45,624 bases of DNA. Source: a phage. The stretch lies in assembly GCA_033193195.1 (NCBI GenBank), contig GCA_033193195.1_4326.1. One strand, given 5' to 3'. Both the position numbers and the translations under genes were made by a program. This document shows, in pieces, positions 25-45,572 of this stretch. The notes under the pieces were generated by a model that saw only the letters and a program-made list of their open reading frames with translations, did not search any database and was not told where the DNA came from. Within the stretch, counting starts at the first letter, position 1. Every line of letters starts with the position of its first letter.

Positions 25-696
25 ATGGTTGTTTGGTCTTTATTTGATGGTTCAGGGCTGGCTGTGAAAGATTGGGCTGAGGCTGGTCACTAGTGCTACT
101 GTTTCAACTTTGATGAGTCTGACCACGGTAGTTACGGGGATTTAAATGCAAAATTTGAACATGAGAACATCACCTACGTTAATGCCTGGATAGATGGCAA
201 CTTCGACTTTGATGTGAAGCCTGATATCATTTTAGCGTTCCCGCCGTGTACGGATTTAGCCGTGAGCGGGTCAAGGCACTTTGAGCGAAAGCGACTGGTT
301 AACCATAACTTCCAGATTGAAGCTGCGGATACATGTAAAGTTGCTTTTAACTTGGCTAATAAGTACGAAGTCCCATACATGATTGAGAATCCAATCAGCG
401 TACTGTCATCACTCTGGAGAAAGCCTAATAAGACTTTCCACCCATATGAATACGGAGGCTATTTGCCGGAAGATGATTTACACCCGTTTTTTAGCGACCT
501 AATAAAGCCAAGAGACGCATATCCTAAGAAGACATGCATTTGGTATGGCAATGGGTTTAAATGGCCAGAGGCGATTCCTGTGGACGTTAACGATGGATTC
601 TCTGACCAATACAAGAAGCTTGGTGGGAAGAGTAAGAAGACAAAGGTAATTCGCAGTCTAACTCCTCGCGGTTTTGCAAAAGCAGTCTTCATAGCA

Positions 697-714
<18 letters not shown>
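25..714 (+). pseudogene. DNA (cytosine-5) methyltransferase-like gene interrupted by in-frame TAG at 91..93
   Basis: ATG 25 preceded by GAGAGG; N-term MVVWSLFDGSG (motif I-like), then TAG at codon 23, same frame continues to AFPPCTDLAVSG (PC motif IV-like) and MIENP (ENV-like); track ORF 214..714 is the downstream part. Confidence 0.5.
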
Positions 715-1976: not shown

Positions 1977-4900
1977 TTAGAACGTGCCTACAATAACTTT
2001 CCCTCCATTCGGTAGGTTAACCGTGATTCCATTGCCGTTAATCTGAACCGTATTGTTAGTTCCGTTAAATGCAAAGTTACCACTATCTGCGTAAAGCCTT
2101 CCATGAATTTCTGCATTACCAGACTTCTCAATCCTCCACCCAGCACTTCCTTGAACAAAGTTGTTTGATTGAATCGAGTTACCAATCTTCGCGTTAGTGA
2201 TTGAACCATCCTGAATCACTGTGCTTTGAATGAATACCTGATTACCTTCAACTACGAAAGGCAATGACCACTGACCGGAACCTGAACTAACACCGTTACT
2301 GATTGCGAACCTGTTAGCATCAAAGATGACCTGACTACGAACATTGCCATCAGAACCAGTTAGCGCCATACTCATGCCAGAACTGTACTCAACGCCATTG
2401 TATTTGAGGCCAAGTTTAATCCCGTACTGAGCACCAATTGAATCGGCAGTAACGTAAGTGTCCAGCTTCTCATTTAACGCAGCCTCATTATCACCTAGCC
2501 TTGCAGATAAAGCAGTGTCCGCAGTGGTCCTTGCTTGCGTCTCTTCCGCTAGCGCCGTATCAATCCTTGTCAATGAAGCTACAATCTCATCATCAATCTG
2601 CGCCTTAAGCTGCGTCAGAGCCTCTACGCGAGCCCTTTCTTCATCGGCGATAAGATTCACAGCCTGAACAAATTCGGCCTTCCTCTTGCCGTTTTCCTTC
2701 GTCATTCTACGCACGTCACCATCATTAGCCAGGGCGTTCTCAATTATTGATTCCGCTTGCGCCTGAATAGCTCCGTTTGACTCAATGGCATTCTGTTGGA
2801 GATACTTGAACCCATCTGAGTTTTCTATATCAACCTTAATATCACCAATGATTGACGACACATCATCGCTTGCCATACCCCTTACAAAATCAGTCCATGG
2901 TGAGACGTTACCAATCTTGTCAATCAGTCGCGCCCTGTACCAGATGACCTTTCCAGCAGGAAGTGTAGTATGCCAGTACTCGTAACTCGGGTAAGGCACC
3001 AGAGTCAGAAGGCTAGCATTCTCTGGTGTATAAGTACCATCACCATTGTCGGCTACTTGCTGCAATTCAGTGTATGACGTATCGGCTGAGTTTTCAGGAA
3101 ATCCCCACTTAACCCTAATGCCGAATATTTCATCATCTGAAGCGGTGATTACTGTAGGTGAAGAAGGGGTCCCAATCTTGCCTGTGAGGCTTACTGAAAC
3201 AATGTCAGACCATGCGGATACGTTTTCAGTATCAGAAACGGCCCTTACGCGAACCTGGTAAATTCCGGCATAGATACCTTCAATATCAACCTCTGTGCTT
3301 GCTGTGCGCGGCACGTTAATCCAGTTTCCGTTCTCCTTGCGCCACTGGACCGTGTAGGTTTTCGCGTACTGAACCTTGTCCCACGTGATTACCATTGTCT
3401 CAACTGATAAACCCTGAACAACCTTACTGTAACTGCTAACCTGAACATTCTCTGGTGCCAGCAGTGTATCCGGCTCGACGATTGAAGTCGGCCTATCAGT
3501 AATGTTTACGCCGTAATCAATTTCGTCGTATTTGTTAGGGTCGTACTCAACCGCTGTAATCGTGTAACCAAACGCATCATCTCCATCGCTGTCTGCTTTT
3601 TGAATACCGGTCACAACATATTGCTGAAGAGCAAGATTTTCCTTATCAATCGCAAATACTGTGTCAGGCTGAGGAGTAAAGCTAAACGCTGTATTAAGTT
3701 GCAGCGTCATACCATCTTCAGATACAGATGCAATGGTCCTGTACTCTGGCATTCCATCAGGCTTGTTAATAAGAATCCTGTCGCCAGCAGCAGCGTCAAT
3801 CTTAAAGGGTACGAAAACCTGCAACCCACTAACAGACTCAATACGCCCAGAAAGATTAAGCGTGTAGTTGCTAGACCATGCCTGGTCATTAACTGCAATC
3901 ACTTCACCAATCATTGGGATCATGCCTTCCAGACCAGTAGTGAAACTGATTGTCTCACTGCGCAAGTTTGTCTTTAACAGCCATCGACCGCGTCTGTTTG
4001 CCTCACTCCTGCGTGTACATCCAATAGCGGTAAGGTCAACAGGGTTGTAACCAAAACGCCTTGTTGCCTCTAACTCGAATACTGGCTCAACATCCTGTTG
4101 GTATGAGTTTTCAACGTCATCAAACTGAACGTTGGCAACCGTGTAAAGTGACTTATCGCTACCAAATGTACGGTTAAAAACACCATCAACAACGTTGTCA
4201 TTGGTGAATACGTACGATGGTTGACGCGGCTTATCGACAACAATCCCTATCTGCTCGCCGTCATAGAATGTCAGCCCACGGAAGATAGAGCAAATATCAC
4301 GGATTACCTGATATGCTTCAACTTTCTGCTGAATGACAACATCACACAGGTAGCGCGGCTCAACTCCACCCTTACCATCTGGAACCATCTGGTCACAGAA
4401 TTGCGCCGCCTCATACAGACCCCACTTATCAATAGTAATGCCAAGCTCTCGCTGGTCAAGTCCGTAACGCTGATTCGTCACCAAGTCGTAAAGAACCCAC
4501 GCCGGGTTATTGGAATACGCCATCTTAAAGGTGCCGTTCCAGGTTCCGCTGTAAGTCCTTGTCTCTGGGTTGTAGTTATTTGGAACGCGAATCAACTTCC
4601 ACTTCTTCTTGATTGAAATCGTCGGGATTCCGTTAGGGAAGAGGTCAGAACTGAACTCAACGTAAACCAGAGCTGTAAGTGGGTAGCGGAATTTAGCATC
4701 AATTACTTCCTGATAGGTCGTAATTTGCATGTCGTTAACCAGCGTCGAACTTTCTGAATCTGCCGTGATCTTACGAACCCTCACCAACGCACTCGAGAAC
4801 TCAGCAGGAAGGTTAACCCTGATACTTCTGTCGTACCCGCTAGTTGTCTTGCCATTAACTACTCCGCGCGTGTACTCAGTGTATGTAGCGCCATCAACGG

Positions 4901-7900: not shown

Positions 7901-7931
7901 TTAAAATCCTTAGGGGCCGAAGCCCCGTTAA

Positions 7932-19396: not shown

Positions 19397-19750
19397 TTAC
19401 TCGAATTTTACTTCGAAATTGATTGATGATGTTTTCACTCCATTAAGTGTTAACTGGCGAACCTCCCTTCTGACTTCATAAAATGCCTCTTTAGTTACTA
19501 TGTTTTTGTTGATGAAGTATTTAATCCCAGCCTTTTCAACTTTAAAATTATCACCTTTAACGACAAAATCGGTAGGCTCTATAACTTCGAAATCATAAAC
19601 ACTAAGATTAATTACGCCAAAATAGCCTTTATCATCCTTAACTTTGACGTATTCATTATTACTTCCAGACGTTCTTGATAAGTCATAAATCTTACCAACG
19701 GTAAACTCAAAATAACCATCTTTTTTATACCCTTTAAATACTGCTTTCAT
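19397..19750 (-). CDS. hypothetical protein
   Basis: 117 aa with own family promoter upstream. Confidence 0.5.
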   Translation of the reverse strand: MKAVFKGYKKDGYFEFTVGKIYDLSRTSGSNNEYVKVKDDKGYFGVINLSVYDFEVIEPTDFVVKGDNFKVEKAGIKYFINKNIVTKEAFYEVRREVRQLTLNGVKTSSINFEVKFE

Positions 19751-22571: not shown

Positions 22572-22647
22572 TGGTGTTCCGCACTGGACTCGAACCAGTA
22601 ACTAAGACTTAGGAGGTCTTTGCGTTATCCTGTTACGCCAGCAGAAC
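22572..22647 (-). tRNA. tRNA-Arg (anticodon CCU, decodes AGG)
   Basis: 76 nt cloverleaf by hand: acceptor GTTCTGC/GCGGAAC (one G-U), D stem GCGT/ACGC with GG loop, anticodon stem AAGAC/GTCTT, loop CTCCTAA, T stem ACTGG/CCAGT, T loop TTCGAGT, encoded CCA. Confidence 0.8.
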
Positions 22648-22835
22648 AAATCCTTGAGTAGCGATTGCGCTATTGAAGGATTGCTGGTTACGCTTCCAGC
22701 GTCGAGTTTCTCGACCGATTTCGCCATATACGCTGCTTAGTGAGCTATGGACTTTGTGTTGCGCTCAGTGCGCCGTTGCCACTTGGTGGCCTCGTCTGTC
22801 TACAGTTGTTAATGTACCAGTCAGGGTTAGATGTG

Positions 22836-23036
22836 TCAACTTACTCTTTCGAATTTCCCATAATTCTGGTCATACGGGTAGTCAATGCTCACCAATTCGC
22901 CATTATCGCTGTAGCAGAATACGTGGCCAGTCTTCGATACCTTTTCGACCTGGTAATCGCATCCATATATGAAGTCATCCGATGCCGCCTTTGTGCACTT
23001 GATAGCATCGCCTTTCTTAATAATTTTATTTATCAA
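22836..23036 (-). CDS. hypothetical protein
   Basis: 66 aa ORF. Confidence 0.4.
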   Translation of the reverse strand: MINKIIKKGDAIKCTKAASDDFIYGCDYQVEKVSKTGHVFCYSDNGELVSIDYPYDQNYGKFERVS

Positions 23037-23528: not shown

Positions 23529-23975
23529 ATTTTATCTTCACGCTCCTTCCATAGATTCATCAGCTCGAAGTACATCATGGCAACCTCGCCAGTCTTAGCC
23601 TCATCCATCATCCGTTTAGCCCACTGGCTTTGTGTTTCGTAGTTATCCATTAGTAAACAAGAGCCTCGTGGTTTGCTATGTAAAGCTCCTCATCGTGCTT
23701 GTTTTTAATGAAGTACCCATTGCCATCTTCGCTAGGCTATGCATAGAATACGTCGCCATGCTTTAAGCGCGCCATATAATCATCCTGGCCAATGTATACG
23801 ATCTTAATCATGCAATCACCTCACTTAAATTATAGTTCGTTAGAATCGCTTTTAGCGTCATCTACGGCTGCTGAAATCATGTAAATAATCATGAAGCCCA
23901 AATGACCAGAGTAACTATGGCAATGCTTCAACCAGAACTTCATCCATCATTAACCCAGTATTCATTTCTCTATCC

Positions 23976-24764: not shown

Positions 24765-25286
24765 CTATTTAGTCTCCTTAATCATTTCCTGGTATGCGTT
24801 AATCATTGATACTGCACCCTTAAGTTCATCACCTTCAAGACCAGCGACGCTTGGTGATAGTTTCAACAATCGAGCCTTGAACCTTTCAATGGTAGCCGCC
24901 TCCCTCTCTTGCTCTGCTTTGCTTCTTGAGCCGGATTTTACAGCGCCAGGAACCAGGCTAAGTGATGCGCAGTATGTCTCACTCTCGCCCTCAAAGTCGG
25001 TAAAACTAAGTGAGAACCTTGAGCGCACGTCAGCCGCCTTAATCTCAGGCATTCGGCTTACGGTGTTTGAAACGTATGACGCTTTTAGTTTTGGCATGTG
25101 GTATTCACCACCAGGTAGAACCTCCTCACCACTTAGCGATACGAACGTCTCACGACTCATGCCGAAGTATTGACGAGCAATCATGGTCACAGGGACTGTG
25201 CACACTTTGTCTTCTGACTTGAGCGCCTGACTCGCCATGTATCGAATGATTTCACCCAAACTTACTGCTTCTTTATGTTCTGACAT
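24765..25286 (-). CDS. hypothetical protein, first gene of leftward unit from control region A
   Basis: 173 aa ORF; sigma70-like TTGATA-N16-TACCAT upstream. Confidence 0.5.
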   Translation of the reverse strand: MSEHKEAVSLGEIIRYMASQALKSEDKVCTVPVTMIARQYFGMSRETFVSLSGEEVLPGGEYHMPKLKASYVSNTVSRMPEIKAADVRSRFSLSFTDFEGESETYCASLSLVPGAVKSGSRSKAEQEREAATIERFKARLLKLSPSVAGLEGDELKGAVSMINAYQEMIKETK

Positions 25287-25886
25287 ATTCGTTACTCCTG
25301 ATTGGTTGCTCTTCGTTAAGATGAAACCATGGTATCATGAATATACGCGTTATCAAGTGTTATGTTGTGTTTATATCTGCATTGGTTACGCTTTTTGACC
25401 TCTCAGCCCAGCTATAGCTGGTGTAATTACCCTGTGTAAGATTTTACGCGGATTCGCCGGGGGTATGCATATGTATCTATATAGATAAAATTAGTAGTTT
25501 TCATAGAAAAACTATCGACCCATCAATACGACCAATCTACACCATATACATACATATATATAATAATAATAATAATATAGTAAAAGGTTGATATATATAG
25601 ATATTATTATGTAACCATTGCGTAATCTAGCGTGGTAGGCGTGTATGATTCTTCGGAAGCGCACCTCATATACACACCATAACTTCGATAACGTGTATAT
25701 CCAAATTGGCTCAGCAAGAATCAAAATCAACTTGTATGGTAGTTCATCCACCATTCATTCACCCTCACATCAATCATTGCAAATCCCGCAACAATCAAAA
25801 ACATCATTGCATTCGATGCAATATTGTTATATGTGCAATAGTAAGATTAATCATTGCAATATCTGCAACAATAGATAAATCCAACG
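25287..25886. promoter_or_regulatory. control region A: AT-rich noncoding divergent-promoter region, paralogous to 45108..45572
   Basis: shared blocks with region B (CAGCCCAGCTATAGCT; ATAATAATAATAATA..GGTTGATATATATAGATATTATTATGTAAC); palindrome TATCTATATAGATA; TTGCAA-core repeats 25760..25880. Confidence 0.6.
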
Positions 25887-25932
25887 AATAGCACTTTTTG
25901 CTAAAGACATTTAGGTATTGCGGAGTTATAGT
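25887..25932 (+). promoter_or_regulatory. family promoter for rightward early unit
   Basis: AATAGCACTTTTTGCTAAAGAC, TATAGT 25927..25932. Confidence 0.55.
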
Positions 25933-25959
25933 TCGCTCCTCAACAACGAGGAGGGATAT

Positions 25960-26154
25960 GTGAAGGTAAAAATAATAGCGCTAAGTAAGACAGATGGGTT
26001 TGACGATGACGAATACGAATTCTACGGCCTTGAACCTGGAGGTGTTTACGAGGTAGTGGCAATATACGAAGAACTTGAATCAATGGTGATAAAGAACAAG
26101 AATGGTAAACACGTAATGGTATACAACCACGAGGTAGAGTACTGTGAAGATTAA
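25960..26154 (+). CDS. small hypothetical protein (paralog of 26329 gene)
   Basis: GTG 25960 after GAGGAGGG; track ATG 25918 lies upstream of predicted -10. Confidence 0.45.
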   Translation: MKVKIIALSKTDGFDDDEYEFYGLEPGGVYEVVAIYEELESMVIKNKNGKHVMVYNHEVEYCED

Positions 26155-26328
26155 TAGAGAGGAGTTAAAACACGAATGCGACCTGATTGGATTGAACGAA
26201 GATTATACAGACATGGTGTTGCGCGGACGCATCGATATCGACCTTGCTAAGCAACTCCAGTAAGATGATGAGCATATGTGCTGTGATGGCCTTTGATGCG
26301 ACGACTGCATACCATTTTAAGGAATGAG

Positions 26329-26505
26329 ATGATGAAAATTAAGATTGTTAAGTTTGATACTATTTAAACACCAGAATATTACGGCATTGAGATTGGTGGT
26401 GTTTACGATGTATTCATGGAACACGAAAATGGAACTGTTGTAATAATGGATGGTAAAGCCAAGCCATTAGTTATCCACCCTGGAGAGTTTGAGGTAGTAA
26501 AATGA
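26329..26505 (+). pseudogene. small paralogous gene with in-frame TAA at 26365..26367
   Basis: MMKIKIVKFDTI-stop-TPEYYGIEIGGVYDV.. parallels KVKII..EFYGLEPGGVYEV of upstream gene; AAGGAA SD. Confidence 0.45.
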
Positions 26506-26705
26506 AACTATTATGCACTAACATAATTAAAGACTTTAACGATGCCTTCAATAAGGGTTCTGAATACAACGCTACCGAGTTTAAAAATAATATGCGCCTT
26601 GTTACCGGCGAACGTCCACACAAGCATCACAACACGTTCCATGCGCTTAAATGCCTTGATTACGTAATCATCCACGGCATCGCAACTTTCAAGGTGATTG
26701 AATAA
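26502..26705 (+). CDS. hypothetical protein
   Basis: 67 aa, ATGA overlap with upstream gene. Confidence 0.5.
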   Translation: MKLLCTNIIKDFNDAFNKGSEYNATEFKNNMRLVTGERPHKHHNTFHALKCLDYVIIHGIATFKVIE

Positions 26706-26869
26706 TGCTTTTACCATCTGAGATAAACTATTTCGATCTGGAAGTCATAAGTGCTTACAGCGGAAAGGGTTGGCCTTGCGGGGACTGGTTTAACGAGGAC
26801 CTGCTTGAGTCTCACGAGATTATGTTGAAGGCAATTGAGAAGGCCAGAAAAAATAGCACTAATTGCTAA
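26705..26869 (+). CDS. small hypothetical protein ending inside promoter element (..KNSTNC)
   Basis: TAATG overlap start; stop TAA is part of AATAGCACTAATTGCTAA. Confidence 0.4.
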   Translation: MLLPSEINYFDLEVISAYSGKGWPCGDWFNEDLLESHEIMLKAIEKARKNSTNC

Positions 26870-26896
26870 AACTCACCGCCACTGATGGCGTATATT
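26852..26896 (+). promoter_or_regulatory. family promoter
   Basis: AATAGCACTAATTGCTAAAAC, TATATT 26891..26896, leader CATCGAAACGAAAGAGAG. Confidence 0.55.
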
Positions 26897-26928
26897 TACT
26901 CCATCGAAACGAAAGAGAGCAAGAGATC

Positions 26929-27090
26929 ATGTTCGACAACTTTTATGACGAGATGGAAGAGGCGGTTCTCAGGGCGTCGCTAGATGGTAAGATTTACGGT
27001 TTAGTTCAGAAGTTTGATAAGATTGTTGTGCGTATTGTGCGCAAATCAGTACCAAACAAATTCATGTTGACAACTAAGAGATTAAAATAA
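26929..27090 (+). CDS. small hypothetical protein
   Basis: ATG 26929 downstream of predicted start site; track start 26863 lies inside the promoter. Confidence 0.45.
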   Translation: MFDNFYDEMEEAVLRASLDGKIYGLVQKFDKIVVRIVRKSVPNKFMLTTKRLK

Positions 27091-27479
27091 TGACTACTAC
27101 GATAACCAAAAATTTCATTAGCAACGACAACAAGCTATTTAAAGCTCGCGTTAAAAAGATTCACCAGTGGGTTAACGGTGTCGCTGAGGAAGTTGAATTT
27201 GAGCAAATCAAAAAAGACGGCAAATGGATCAACCTGGAAGAACGTGGAAAATACATTAAAACCAAAACTCTTTACTGCACAAAGGTTAACCATAAGTCTG
27301 GCGTTAAGAAAGACTTCAAAGAAGGTAAGCGATACCAGGTCAACATGCATAGCGGACTTGGTCAGTCAGCTGGATACATTTACGATGAAGATGGCAACGC
27401 CTGGCAGCTATATCGCAGCGAATATGTTGGCTTTTATACGTTGTGTGAAACTTACCACTTTGAGGCTCAATACAAATGA
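27090..27479 (+). CDS. hypothetical protein
   Basis: 129 aa ORF. Confidence 0.5.
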   Translation: MTTTITKNFISNDNKLFKARVKKIHQWVNGVAEEVEFEQIKKDGKWINLEERGKYIKTKTLYCTKVNHKSGVKKDFKEGKRYQVNMHSGLGQSAGYIYDEDGNAWQLYRSEYVGFYTLCETYHFEAQYK

Positions 27480-34939: not shown

Positions 34940-36649
34940 TTAATCCTCCATCGTGAATGATTTGTTGGCGATAATGTCTTGAGACTTCTGGTTTTTACGG
35001 TGTGTGATTCTCAATGGGGCACGGAATAGATGTGCATTTGTCATAATCATTCTAGCATTACGCAATCTGCCAATTCTGAATGCCTCAGTCCTGTTATCGA
35101 TGTGTGTTAAGCAGAAAGCCTTCCATTTAACAGAGCAAACGCGATGGTCTGATTCAGGGAAGAATGTTTCATAAGCTCGGAACTTATCTCCACTATGAGC
35201 CATTACCTCATATGAAGCAACGATCCCTGACTGGTTCTTTGTTAACCCAATCTTGAAGTCATAAACTCGCAACCAGTCCCCCTTACGATACATTTTTCCT
35301 GATAACTTAGCATTCGGGTCTATGAGCATCTCACCACAGCATCTGCAATTCTTAGCTGCAATATCATTCTTCTCACCGCATCCTTTCTTAATGATAGCTT
35401 TGGTCTGTGGGTCCACTATATCTTCACACAGTCTAAACTGAAAGAAGTGCTCACAGCGCTTCCCGTCAATTACGTTATTGCAGCGCCTGGCTAATGGAGA
35501 GTTCACATAAGAGCATGCCTGACAGATTCTTGGCTCACCAACACGCTTTCTTGCTGACCTAAATTTCTGGTCTTGTACCTCTTCTATAATTGGGTCGAAG
35601 TAAAGTTCAGCCATATCATCAAGCGTTCCAGCAAAATCAAGAACAACATGGTCATCTTTTACCATTCCAGCTTCTTTGTGCTTCTTCTTAAGGATACGCA
35701 TACCACGACCAAGCAACTGAATGAGTAGAGTAATGCTACCAACCTTCCTCAGGATAATGCTTGTATCCCACGGGGGGCAGTTTACGCCAGTTGTGAGGCA
35801 ACCAATCTGAAATATGAACTTATATTCTCCGTTGGCTGCCTTCTCAAGTATCTCTCTACGCTTATTCTCACCAGTGGAGTTGGTAACTATCGCCCAAGTA
35901 ACACCTTCTGGAAGTGCGGCTGCCGCCTCCTCGCAATGCTGTTTGCTAGCGCAAGTTACCAATGCAGCATTCCTTGTTTCCATAAACCTAGCAGCAAATC
36001 CCATTATCTTTTGTGTCATCGTTTGGTTTTCGTGAATCTTTGCAGCCATCGCATCCATTTCTTTCTTGCTGAAGTCCTTAACCCCATCACTTCCATCAGG
36101 AGTGAACTCACTAAGGTCGTAGCCCAAATCACCAACTTCACCGTAGACAGTAGGAACAACGAACCCCAAGTCAACAAGGTAGCTGGTTGGCACTTGCATT
36201 ACAGTTTTGCGCCAGAATCCACGGACATTTGGGTTACTAACTACAATGTGGTCGTTGTTACGGTACGGGCTACCAGTTAACCCAAAGATACGAAGTTCGC
36301 GACCGTACTTCTCCTTGCATCGACGCTTCATTTCGGTAATGATTAACGTGTATTGCGCGCGACCAGTGCCAAGAAGCCCGGTATTCACACCATCCTTAAA
36401 GACCATCTCACCCTTCTTCGTGCTCATCTGCTCGAATGTTTCCTCATTCTCTTCAGCTTCTACGATATCCATATGGTCCACCATGTGGCAATTATGTGCC
36501 ACGACCCCGTCAGCAATGAAATTATGGTGCTCAGGCATCTCTATATCCCAAACAAGTTCCTTGCCAATGGGTGAGATGTCTTTAATTTTGCTTGATTTTG
36601 TATTCCACGCCATTTTACATGTGCTTACTAATTCTCTTAAAAAACTCAT
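34940..36649 (-). CDS. SF2 helicase C-terminal fragment preceded by intein C-terminal splicing segment
   Basis: N-term ..ELVWDIEMPEHHNFIADGVVAHN then CHMVDH; helicase motifs LTGSP and QLLGRGMR; C-terminal Cys-rich zinc-finger-like region; ATG 36649 with GAGG upstream. Confidence 0.75.
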   Translation of the reverse strand: MSFLRELVSTCKMAWNTKSSKIKDISPIGKELVWDIEMPEHHNFIADGVVAHNCHMVDHMDIVEAEENEETFEQMSTKKGEMVFKDGVNTGLLGTGRAQYTLIITEMKRRCKEKYGRELRIFGLTGSPYRNNDHIVVSNPNVRGFWRKTVMQVPTSYLVDLGFVVPTVYGEVGDLGYDLSEFTPDGSDGVKDFSKKEMDAMAAKIHENQTMTQKIMGFAARFMETRNAALVTCASKQHCEEAAAALPEGVTWAIVTNSTGENKRREILEKAANGEYKFIFQIGCLTTGVNCPPWDTSIILRKVGSITLLIQLLGRGMRILKKKHKEAGMVKDDHVVLDFAGTLDDMAELYFDPIIEEVQDQKFRSARKRVGEPRICQACSYVNSPLARRCNNVIDGKRCEHFFQFRLCEDIVDPQTKAIIKKGCGEKNDIAAKNCRCCGEMLIDPNAKLSGKMYRKGDWLRVYDFKIGLTKNQSGIVASYEVMAHSGDKFRAYETFFPESDHRVCSVKWKAFCLTHIDNRTEAFRIGRLRNARMIMTNAHLFRAPLRITHRKNQKSQDIIANKSFTMED

Positions 36650-37629
36650 CTTGTGCCGACCTCGTTGTTATTGATACTGAGTAAAGCTCTCTCTTTTTCT
36701 TGCCGCAAATATAGCTTATAACCTTAACTCCGTCATTAGCAATAAATGCTATTAGCGCATCAACTACTGATTGAACTTCACGCCTGCTAAATGATTCGGT
36801 GTGGATTTCTACAACCCTCCCCCCTGAGCTTACAGTGCAATGACCATCATCACCAAAGTAAGCAGCCCAACCAACTGGATCAAGCTCTCTGCATATCTTT
36901 CCAATATCGTAACCATCCTTAGAATTTCCGTACTTATCAGCATATGAATCCAGAACTTTCGTACATGATGTTGATACGCAAAACCAGTTGTCGCCAAATC
37001 CAGGGTTTTTCTTCTCCCTGTATCTAGGGTTTAGTTTTGCAAACCTTTCAACCTTGCTTAGTGCGTGCTCCTTATTTCCATATTCCAAGATAGCCTATGC
37101 GTTCCTTTTTCTGTATTTTTAATCAAGCAACCATCACCAGCCATTGCCGCAAGAATGTTTTGATGTAAAAAGTCATCAACCTCCATTTATGGGTTGACGG
37201 TTGAATTATGATGCCCCGTTCTGTAATCCAAATAGAAATCGAAAGGGTTCTTAAGAAGTACGCCTAACCCCTTGCTTGAATGCGGCATAACTTTTTCACC
37301 ACAGCCACACTTGCACGCAGAAGCTTTTTCGTAAATTTGTCCTGCGAGCCGTCTAGCGACAGATTCATCCCAATACGAAGTTTTCCCGCTTCTACCCAGC
37401 AGCCGTTCGAATAAAGTTTGTGTGTACTCGTGCATTTTATTTCCTCTCCGCTTTCTAATTTAATTGATAATACATGTCTTACACCATTAGTAAAAACTCT
37501 TTTTGGCTTATGATAGAAGTAATCACCAGTGCTTTCGTTTATGCATTTTATTTTATGATTGATAAGGTCTTCGCTATCAATCCTCATCATCCCTGAATCG
37601 GTGGTTATCATCGTGTCTCCAGTTAAGCA
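36491..37629 (-). other. intein inserted in helicase DECH motif; LAGLIDADG endonuclease core disrupted
   Basis: blocks CLTGDTMITT and CTSTHKL..W in N-extein frame; ILAAMAGDGC and WAAYFGDDGHC in two other frames; in-frame TAA 37187..37189; length 1139 bp is not a multiple of 3. Confidence 0.7.
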
Positions 37630-38073
37630 CTCATCTATCGCGATAACAGCAGGAGCATAGTCACCAAGCCCCTTAAACAAGCCGTTAGCAGCCGTTCCCT
37701 CACTAGCCACTATGGTTGGATAGTAAACTGATTTAACGTTAAGGCCAGCGCAATAGACGCTATTACGGATGCCGAAATTACGAAGTTCCTCTGCGTTCTG
37801 GCTGATAATCTCTGACTGGCGAGATAGGACCATGTAAGGAAGGCCAAGCTGTTCCATTCGTTTCCCAATCATGGCGAGTATAATTGTCTTACCAGCAGAC
37901 ACCGACAGGTCTGCGATGAATGGCGCTTCGTACTTGCCAATAGCCTTACCGATTGCGTCAAATGTCACGCACTGGAATTCGTAAGGCGTTATGTCTCCAA
38001 ACTGGTAATCTTTCTGAATCTGTTTAATTTTCTCTTTATCAAAGTTCGCCACTAAGCGCTCTACTGGAAGCAT
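37264..38073 (-). CDS. SF2 helicase N-terminal fragment fused to intein N-terminal splicing segment
   Basis: Walker A SVSAGKT, ..VIAIDE then CLTGDTMITT; stops 121 codons into intein. Confidence 0.75.
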   Translation of the reverse strand: MLPVERLVANFDKEKIKQIQKDYQFGDITPYEFQCVTFDAIGKAIGKYEAPFIADLSVSAGKTIILAMIGKRMEQLGLPYMVLSRQSEIISQNAEELRNFGIRNSVYCAGLNVKSVYYPTIVASEGTAANGLFKGLGDYAPAVIAIDECLTGDTMITTDSGMMRIDSEDLINHKIKCINESTGDYFYHKPKRVFTNGVRHVLSIKLESGEEIKCTSTHKLYSNGCWVEAGKLRIGMNLSLDGSQDKFTKKLLRASVAVVKKLCRIQARG

Positions 38074-38694: not shown

Positions 38695-39174
38695 ATGAAC
38701 TGGCATGATTATTTTTACTATGTAGATGGCAAATTGCATTGAAAGATTAGCACTGCAAGACGTGTTAAGGTTGGCGATGAGTGCAACTCACTATCTACAT
38801 CTGGCTATTACAAAGTGTCTGTTAATGGCTTTAGGACTTATGTACATAGAGTTGTGTGGGAGATGTTTAATGGAGAACTTCAAAATGGCGACTACATTGA
38901 TCATATAAACCATAACAAATTAGATAACAGAATAGAAAACCTAAGAGTAACAACAAATCAAGGTAACTCAAGAAATTGCAAGCTTAGCGTTTTATCAACA
39001 ACTGGTTATTGTGGAGTGGCAAAGCTAAATCACGGAAAATTTAAGGCTTACATCAAGGTTGACGGCAAGCAGCTACACCTTGGTAACTTCGATACTCCAG
39101 AGCAGGCGTATAAAGTAAGAATTGAAGCAGAGAGAAAATACAACTTTCACGAAAATCACGGTTTAAGCAAATGA
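38695..39174 (+). pseudogene. HNH-AP2 homing endonuclease-like gene with in-frame TGA at 38740..38742
   Basis: MNWHDYFYYVDGKLH-stop-KISTARRVKVGD (Trp expected in G.L.WK motif); HRVVWEMFNGEL..DHINHNKLDNRIENLR HNH; YCGVAKLNHGKFKAYIKVDGKQLHLGNF AP2-like; GGGAGA SD. Confidence 0.65.
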
Positions 39175-44912: not shown

Positions 44913-45107
44913 TCAATCCTTAATTTTAACAATCTTAATAGCTTTCAAATCTTCTTCAGTGAAGTATCCTGTCAGCAACTCCTTGGCCTCTTCCTTTGTC
45001 TCGAATTGGTCGGCTTCAGATTTGTTGGTAGTGTATCCAGCGGGGCCACCAAAGTAGCAATCGCCGAACAGTGCGTTGTTTTTCTCTTTAATAATGAAGT
45101 ATGGCAT
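44913..45107 (-). CDS. hypothetical protein, first gene of leftward unit from control region B
   Basis: 64 aa; TTGGAC..ATCATT promoter-like and ATCGAAAGCACGC leader upstream. Confidence 0.45.
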   Translation of the reverse strand: MPYFIIKEKNNALFGDCYFGGPAGYTTNKSEADQFETKEEAKELLTGYFTEEDLKAIKIVKIKD

Positions 45108-45572
45108 TTCTCTATCTCTCTATTTTTGCGTGCTTTCGATTAGTTAATGATGCCGCACGCAAGACACACAGTCCAATTGGTATCACCGATTAATTAATCA
45201 AGTATACGCGTATAAATCCGTAACTACGTGTAGACATTGCCATTAGTTACGTTTTTCACCACTTCAGCCCAGCTATAGCTCAATGTAAATAGTGCGTATA
45301 CCGTGTATACCGATTTTTGCGGAGGGTGCATAGGTATATGCGCCACGCAATACTGTATAAAATCACATTATATAAAAATTATAACCGGAACACTCCAGAA
45401 CAGTAGTTACATGATATACACAGTAATATATATAATAATAATAATAAGAGTAAATGGTTGATATATATAGATATTATTATGTAACTATGGCGTATCAAAG
45501 CGTAACTAGGCGTATACGATTTCCCGCTGATGCATATGGTATACATAGAGTTACATCGGTTACGCGTAACCA
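45108..45572. promoter_or_regulatory. control region B: AT-rich noncoding divergent-promoter region paralogous to region A
   Basis: same conserved blocks as 25380..25650; palindrome GGTTACGCGTAACC at 45558..45571. Confidence 0.6.

Follow-up and report, generated by a model that had tools for sequence, protein, structure and literature searches.

A private ochre codon in a small early gene of an Rtp-like coliphage genome probably marks one of several decaying accessory genes

The stretch of DNA analysed here, hereafter the window (45,624 nucleotides; NCBI GenBank assembly GCA_033193195.1, contig GCA_033193195.1_4326.1), carries on its plus strand a run of small genes in which two members of the phrog_14327 family lie on either side of a gene of another family. 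Copy 1 (25960..26154) is intact, is preceded by a strong Shine-Dalgarno sequence, GAGGAGGG, and encodes from a GTG start the 64-aa protein that the original prediction had placed there. The next gene encodes 58 aa and belongs to phrog_9053 (26144..26320), with a C-terminal CCxxxxCxxC motif (CCDGLGCDDC) in its product, and after it come copy 2 (26329..26505) and a 67-aa gene of phrog_4448 (26502..26705). Copy 2 begins with the ATG at 26329, or with that at 26332 as called in relatives, and a Shine-Dalgarno sequence, AAGGA, is found 6-9 nt 5′ of its two ATGs. The sequence reads ATG ATG AAA ATT AAG ATT GTT AAG TTT GAT ACT ATT TAA ACA CCA GAA TAT TAC GGC, with an ochre codon in frame at 26365..26367, exactly as predicted from the letters, and the frame, the same on both sides of the TAA, closes at the TGA at 26503-26505.

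The window represents a complete genome of an Rtp-like Escherichia coli phage of the subfamily Braunvirinae (Drexlerviridae), obtained from metagenomic runs. The GenBank phages matched by megablast and tblastn, namely ES, TR1/TR2, BEK2/3, JeanPiccard, JulesPiccard and 2725-N35, all fall within this subfamily. Exact-protein look-ups led to the Logan contig DRR502069_167 (45,654 nt), which is the window in circularly permuted form and is 100% identical to it in every stretch fetched. Exact-pattern scans of IMG/VR, JGI metagenomes and GTDB genomes gave no match for the copy 2 locus; the literature yielded no mention of the run DRR502069 and nothing relevant on pseudogenes of Drexlerviridae.

The relatives of copy 2 leave little ambiguity about the ancestral state of the codon. 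The GenBank orthologs in BEK2, A110b, 2725-N35 and JeanPiccard, with 74-79% amino acid identity, have TAC at the position of the stop in all four cases, and the same codon is found in three independent contigs, ENA ERZ28636460, GCA_048607545.1 and Logan SRR19064797, making seven of seven relatives with tyrosine. Each of the 18 homolog clusters in a database of 5.8 billion proteins is full length, and ten contigs carry the intact 57-aa copy 2 protein (P0001). Since the relatives all have TAC and the homolog clusters are all full length, the stop is derived and private to the window lineage, and the nonsense codon claimed for one of the two copies is genuine. The change is a single C>A transversion at 26367 that turned the conserved Tyr12 codon TAC into TAA. 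Compared over positions 25940-26518 (579 nt), the window differs from the same three contigs at only three bases, 26262, 26294 and 26367, and each of the three is a nonsense change specific to the window; in the three contigs the gene calls give the 58-aa gene and copy 2 as intact, with lengths of 58 and 57 aa. Translation of copy 2 would stop after 12-13 residues, before any foldable portion is made, so that the full-length product is presumably absent from this lineage. The gene is presumably dispensable: in ES, TR2 and the contigs L014 and L016, copy 2 is absent or replaced, and in ERR4228857 it is fused to copy 1.

The two copies are clearly homologous. The pairwise protein alignment that had been suggested as a check gives 37% identity over 60 aa (BLASTP, E 2e-6), and both proteins match the phrog_14327 profile significantly and over its full length, copy 1 with an E-value of 1.2e-31 (profile positions 1-63) and copy 2, once Tyr is put in place of the stop, with 3.7e-7 (positions 1-61). 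At the DNA level the similarity is confined to a conserved core of copy 2, EYYGIEIGGVYDV (26374..26412), a 39-nt direct repeat of 26017-26055 in copy 1 with 79% identity. The original prediction saw in the pair a tandem duplication with one copy carrying a nonsense codon; homology and the nonsense codon both stand, while the copies are not adjacent, being separated by the 58-aa gene, and with this intervening gene and an amino acid identity of only 37% the pair is not the product of a recent tandem event. Rather, the family is an old, mosaic, multi-copy one: relatives hold one to three phrog_14327-type members in variable order. Copy 1 is full length compared with relatives and is found 100% identical on five contigs (P0019). 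A natural recombinant of the two copies also speaks for their similarity: the Logan contig ERR4228857_434 encodes at 3001..3189 an in-frame chimera of 62 aa (P0004) whose N-terminal part derives from copy 1 and C-terminal part from copy 2, with the crossover in the TACGGC that both cores have in common and with loss of the intervening 58-aa gene. Such paralogs thus mediate deletions. The family itself (PHROGs v4, unknown function) consists of small early proteins of Rtp-like Braunvirinae coliphages, such as BEK2 QGH76758.1 and JeanPiccard bas02_0059. Copy 2 resembles the hypothetical proteins of BEK2 and JeanPiccard in sequence and in gene neighbourhood, but unlike the phrog_14327 members it has TAA where all of them have Tyr, which makes it a null allele of the family.

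The genes on both sides of copy 2 differ in their fate. In the 58-aa gene two private in-frame stops are present, a TAA at 26261-26263 that replaces the TCA codon of Ser40 through 26262 C>A, and a TGA at 26294-26296 that replaces the GGA codon of Gly51 through 26294 G>T, and as judged from the sequence the gene would be inactivated or truncated by them. Downstream, the 67-aa gene starts with an ATG that overlaps the copy 2 TGA (as ATGA), yet it has a Shine-Dalgarno sequence of its own, GAGG at 26489-26492, and its expression therefore need not depend on copy 2; it is probably still translated from this site. The 67-aa gene carries several private missense changes, with D>N, D>N and Q>H. Likewise, a gene of 117 aa that lies between those for the portal and the terminase (19400..19750, minus strand) has six private missense changes and zero synonymous ones, and both genes look relaxed or fast-evolving in the window lineage.

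The nonsense codon is no special trait of the pair; it is one of about ten lineage-specific inactivating mutations distributed over at least seven non-essential genes. Disruptions were searched for by tblastn with the annotated proteins of BEK2 and TR2 and the called genes of two 97%-identical contigs, L014 and L015 (the latter being ERZ28636460); queries were restricted to annotated or called genes, as queries with all open reading frames were too noisy because of spurious frames. Stops and frameshifts were found only in non-essential genes, comprising four small early genes, an HNH endonuclease gene, a Dcm-like methyltransferase gene and a 135-aa gene. Among the early genes on the minus strand, a 53-aa gene (23653..23811) has a private GAG>TAG change at Glu25 (codon 23737-23739, base 23739), and a 44-aa gene (23833..23965) has both a private TGG>TAG change at Trp17 (codon 23915-23917, base 23916) and, at 23900, an insertion of 1 nt. 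A 65-aa early gene (22839..23033, minus strand) has lost its start codon, ATG having become ATA by 23031 C>T; the gene is called in L014 and L015 and uncalled in the window's own contig (L013). The HNH endonuclease gene (38695..39174, plus strand) has a private TGG>TGA change at Trp16 (38740-38742), which is the single difference from phage TR1, 98.3% identical there. The Dcm-like C5 cytosine methyltransferase gene (25..714, plus strand) has an in-frame TAG at 91-93, codon 23, located 3′ of motif I, where relatives have Thr (ACT or ACA). Finally, the homolog of a 135-aa gene of TR2 (44919..45331, minus strand) contains three stops, TAG at 45226 and TAA at 45196 and 45142, as well as a frameshift, and just a 64-aa C-terminal ORF is still called; the stops at 45226 and 45196 are common to the GenBank phage ES, and the decay of this gene is therefore older.

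In contrast, the large structural and replication genes are all intact. With the methyltransferase and the HNH endonuclease as the sole exceptions, all BEK2 and TR2 proteins of more than 150 aa with a counterpart in the window align in a single frame with no stops. The helicase aligns as two stop-free pieces flanking an insertion: its region (34940..38073, minus strand) is split, compared with a single 664-aa gene in BEK2 and TR2, and the inserted sequence contains a 269-aa ORF (37264..38073) as well as ORFs that match LAGLIDADG weakly (36615..37088), which suggests an insert of the homing-endonuclease, intron or intein type. Stops at 7903, 7912 and 30029 were traced to differences in start sites and are not disruptions. 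The restriction-site-like contexts of some of the stops (ACTAGT at 91, TTAATTAA at 45196) brought up the idea of engineered stops, which was dropped because the stops at 45196 and 45226 are shared with ES and the contig has its origin in complex metagenome assemblies.

The distribution of the private changes over the genome provides a view of the forces behind these losses. A difference was counted as private when it set the window apart from two or more close relatives that match one another, dense recombination tracts being excluded. The 67 differences thus obtained comprise 23 G:C>A:T, 22 G:C>T:A, 12 A:T>G:C and 7 A:T>C:G changes, along with one G:C>C:G, one A:T>T:A and one 1-nt indel. In this bias the changes follow raw spontaneous mutation, which in bacteria is known to run from G:C toward A:T, and oxidised guanine is expected to produce G:C>T:A changes. 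Of the 22 G:C>T:A changes, none falls in the portal, MuF-like and large terminase genes (3.6 kb), whereas 11 of them are located in small accessory genes, four of these being nonsense. The ratio of non-synonymous (including nonsense) to synonymous changes is 20:6 in accessory genes versus 6:15 in core genes (Fisher P = 0.0013), and the six synonymous changes in the accessory genes compare with 6.1 expected under neutrality. From the accessory/core contrast and a synonymous count at the neutral expectation it follows that the private changes are real mutations, filtered from essential genes by selection and tolerated in dispensable ones, and the accessory pattern fits neutral decay of dispensable genes. 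The ORF at 26332..26505 is thus likely an ordinary pseudogene of a dispensable early accessory gene, which encoded a 57-aa protein of unknown function with a predicted SH3-like β-barrel fold and was lost as part of the decay in this lineage, where recent private mutations would pile up nearly neutrally in non-essential genes and be purged from essential ones.

The allele is not confined to a single assembly. Logan contigs of DRR502069 (20 kb compared) and DRR502114 (two contigs, 7.7 kb) are 100% identical to the window, and contigs of both have the same TAA at 26365..26367; as the two sequencing runs give identical bases, a random read error at the stop is unlikely, with the proviso that the allele-bearing runs probably stem from one project and are possibly not fully independent. 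A systematic artefact of sequencing or assembly, in which the true base is C (TAC) and DNA damage or a fault specific to the platform led to a false A at 26367, would agree with the abundance of G:C>T:A and G:C>A:T among the private changes, since template oxidation typically yields C>A and G>T, as does cross-talk between the A/C and G/T channels, and also with the low k-mer coverage of one lineage assembly (NODE_1355, cov 6.6). However, the separate ENA assembly ERZ25893016 has only one mismatch in 13.6 kb of neighbouring sequence that covers the other early-gene stops, much as the contigs of the two runs are identical, and neither the avoidance of essential genes nor the contrast in non-synonymous to synonymous changes between core and accessory genes is expected of errors, so that an artefact is considered very unlikely. 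Even less probable is that the full-length protein is still made by recoding of the TAA, be it through programmed readthrough or through a suppressor tRNA of the host or the phage. Misreading of UAA by a near-cognate tRNA-Tyr would indeed give back the ancestral residue, yet both E. coli release factors recognise UAA, the stop is conserved in no relative, and the sole tRNA of the genome is a tRNA-Arg(CCT) (22572..22647, minus strand) that is also annotated in phage TR2, with no suppressor tRNA detected in the genome by ARAGORN. Moreover, the disruptions in the genome include TAA, TAG, TGA, a frameshift and a start-codon loss, which no single recoding mechanism would cover; taken with the lack of a suppressor tRNA, the occurrence of all three stop types means that there is no evidence of recoding. 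Neither strand of 25200-27200 gave an Rfam match at E-values up to 1, and re-initiation at the next in-frame ATG, 26416, which would yield just 29 aa, finds no suitably spaced Shine-Dalgarno sequence.

A more serious competitor to neutral decay is adaptive loss, according to which the small early proteins do harm in the present host, for instance by setting off abortive infection or other defences, and the knock-outs swept the lineage. Five neighbouring small early genes are disrupted, and nonsense changes are more frequent than expected: five are observed among 26 coding changes versus about two expected (P ~0.04), which corresponds to an excess of about 2.5-fold over the spectrum-adjusted neutral expectation, while the finding that three of three private changes within 25940-26518 are nonsense has a P of ~0.007 if only G:C>T:A changes are considered and of 1.4e-4 under a uniform spectrum. 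The excess leaves room for selection favouring loss, although as evidence it is weak. On the other hand, two of the genes are each disrupted twice, more than selection for loss would need, the synonymous and missense counts of the same genes fit neutrality, and the HNH endonuclease and methyltransferase genes are disrupted as well despite being unrelated. Furthermore, the families concerned have no known role as defence triggers, with no Pfam or NCBIfam match and with PHROGs of no known function. Adaptive loss is therefore regarded as unlikely, and a rather slim chance is given to its more elaborate form, in which the cluster of five early knock-outs represents a multi-gene escape from a defence that senses SH3-like and zinc-finger-like proteins.

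Decay of dispensable genes, in turn, would place copy 2 next to the classical ochre mutants and pseudogenes of non-essential phage genes, with which it shares the conversion of a sense codon into TAA by one base change, a dispensable gene and the absence of a suppressor. Unlike the classical mutants, it belongs to a natural, metagenome-derived lineage and is accompanied by about ten other inactivating mutations, and the number of pseudogenes in the window exceeds that usual for compact phage genomes. More than 10% of the genes of this phage have fresh inactivating mutations, with the essential ones spared and a spectrum rich in G:C>T:A, and it is the number of non-essential genes knocked out within one phage genome that is mildly unusual. 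For annotation, the copy 2 ORF and the 58-aa gene should be marked as pseudogenes and not as recoded or readthrough genes. The wider pattern is of mild interest for phage population genetics in that it reveals which early genes are expendable to the phage, and it provides naturally occurring knock-outs in families without a known function, such as phrog_14327, phrog_9053 and others, to which the chimera of copies 1 and 2 adds an illustration of deletions driven by paralogs.

What the intact gene encoded can be described in terms of a predicted fold. Neither of the two copies, nor the 58-aa or the 67-aa gene, had a match in sequence searches of Pfam, NCBIfam and the PDB. The intact copy 2 protein is predicted to be a small SH3-like β-barrel, and the predicted model has five strands and superposes on SH3 or KOW domains. 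The similarity to SH3, KOW and retroviral integrase C-terminal domains is a resemblance in fold only, with a sequence identity of merely 2-19% to SH3-like domains, and it gives no function.

Some further features of the surrounding sequence are worth recording. A private G:C>T:A change at 22767 lies in uncalled sequence just upstream of the tRNA-Arg(CCT) gene. Between the early operons, which are divergent, the AT-rich intergenic region has two 27-nt direct repeats at 25769-25795 and 25846-25872, which read ATCAATCATTGCAA...GCAACAAT and are 81% identical, and several AT-rich inverted repeats are present in the same region at 25474-25613; the direct and inverted repeats could be operator or promoter elements. 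The contig of the assembly ERZ25893016 ends at 25562, inside this region.
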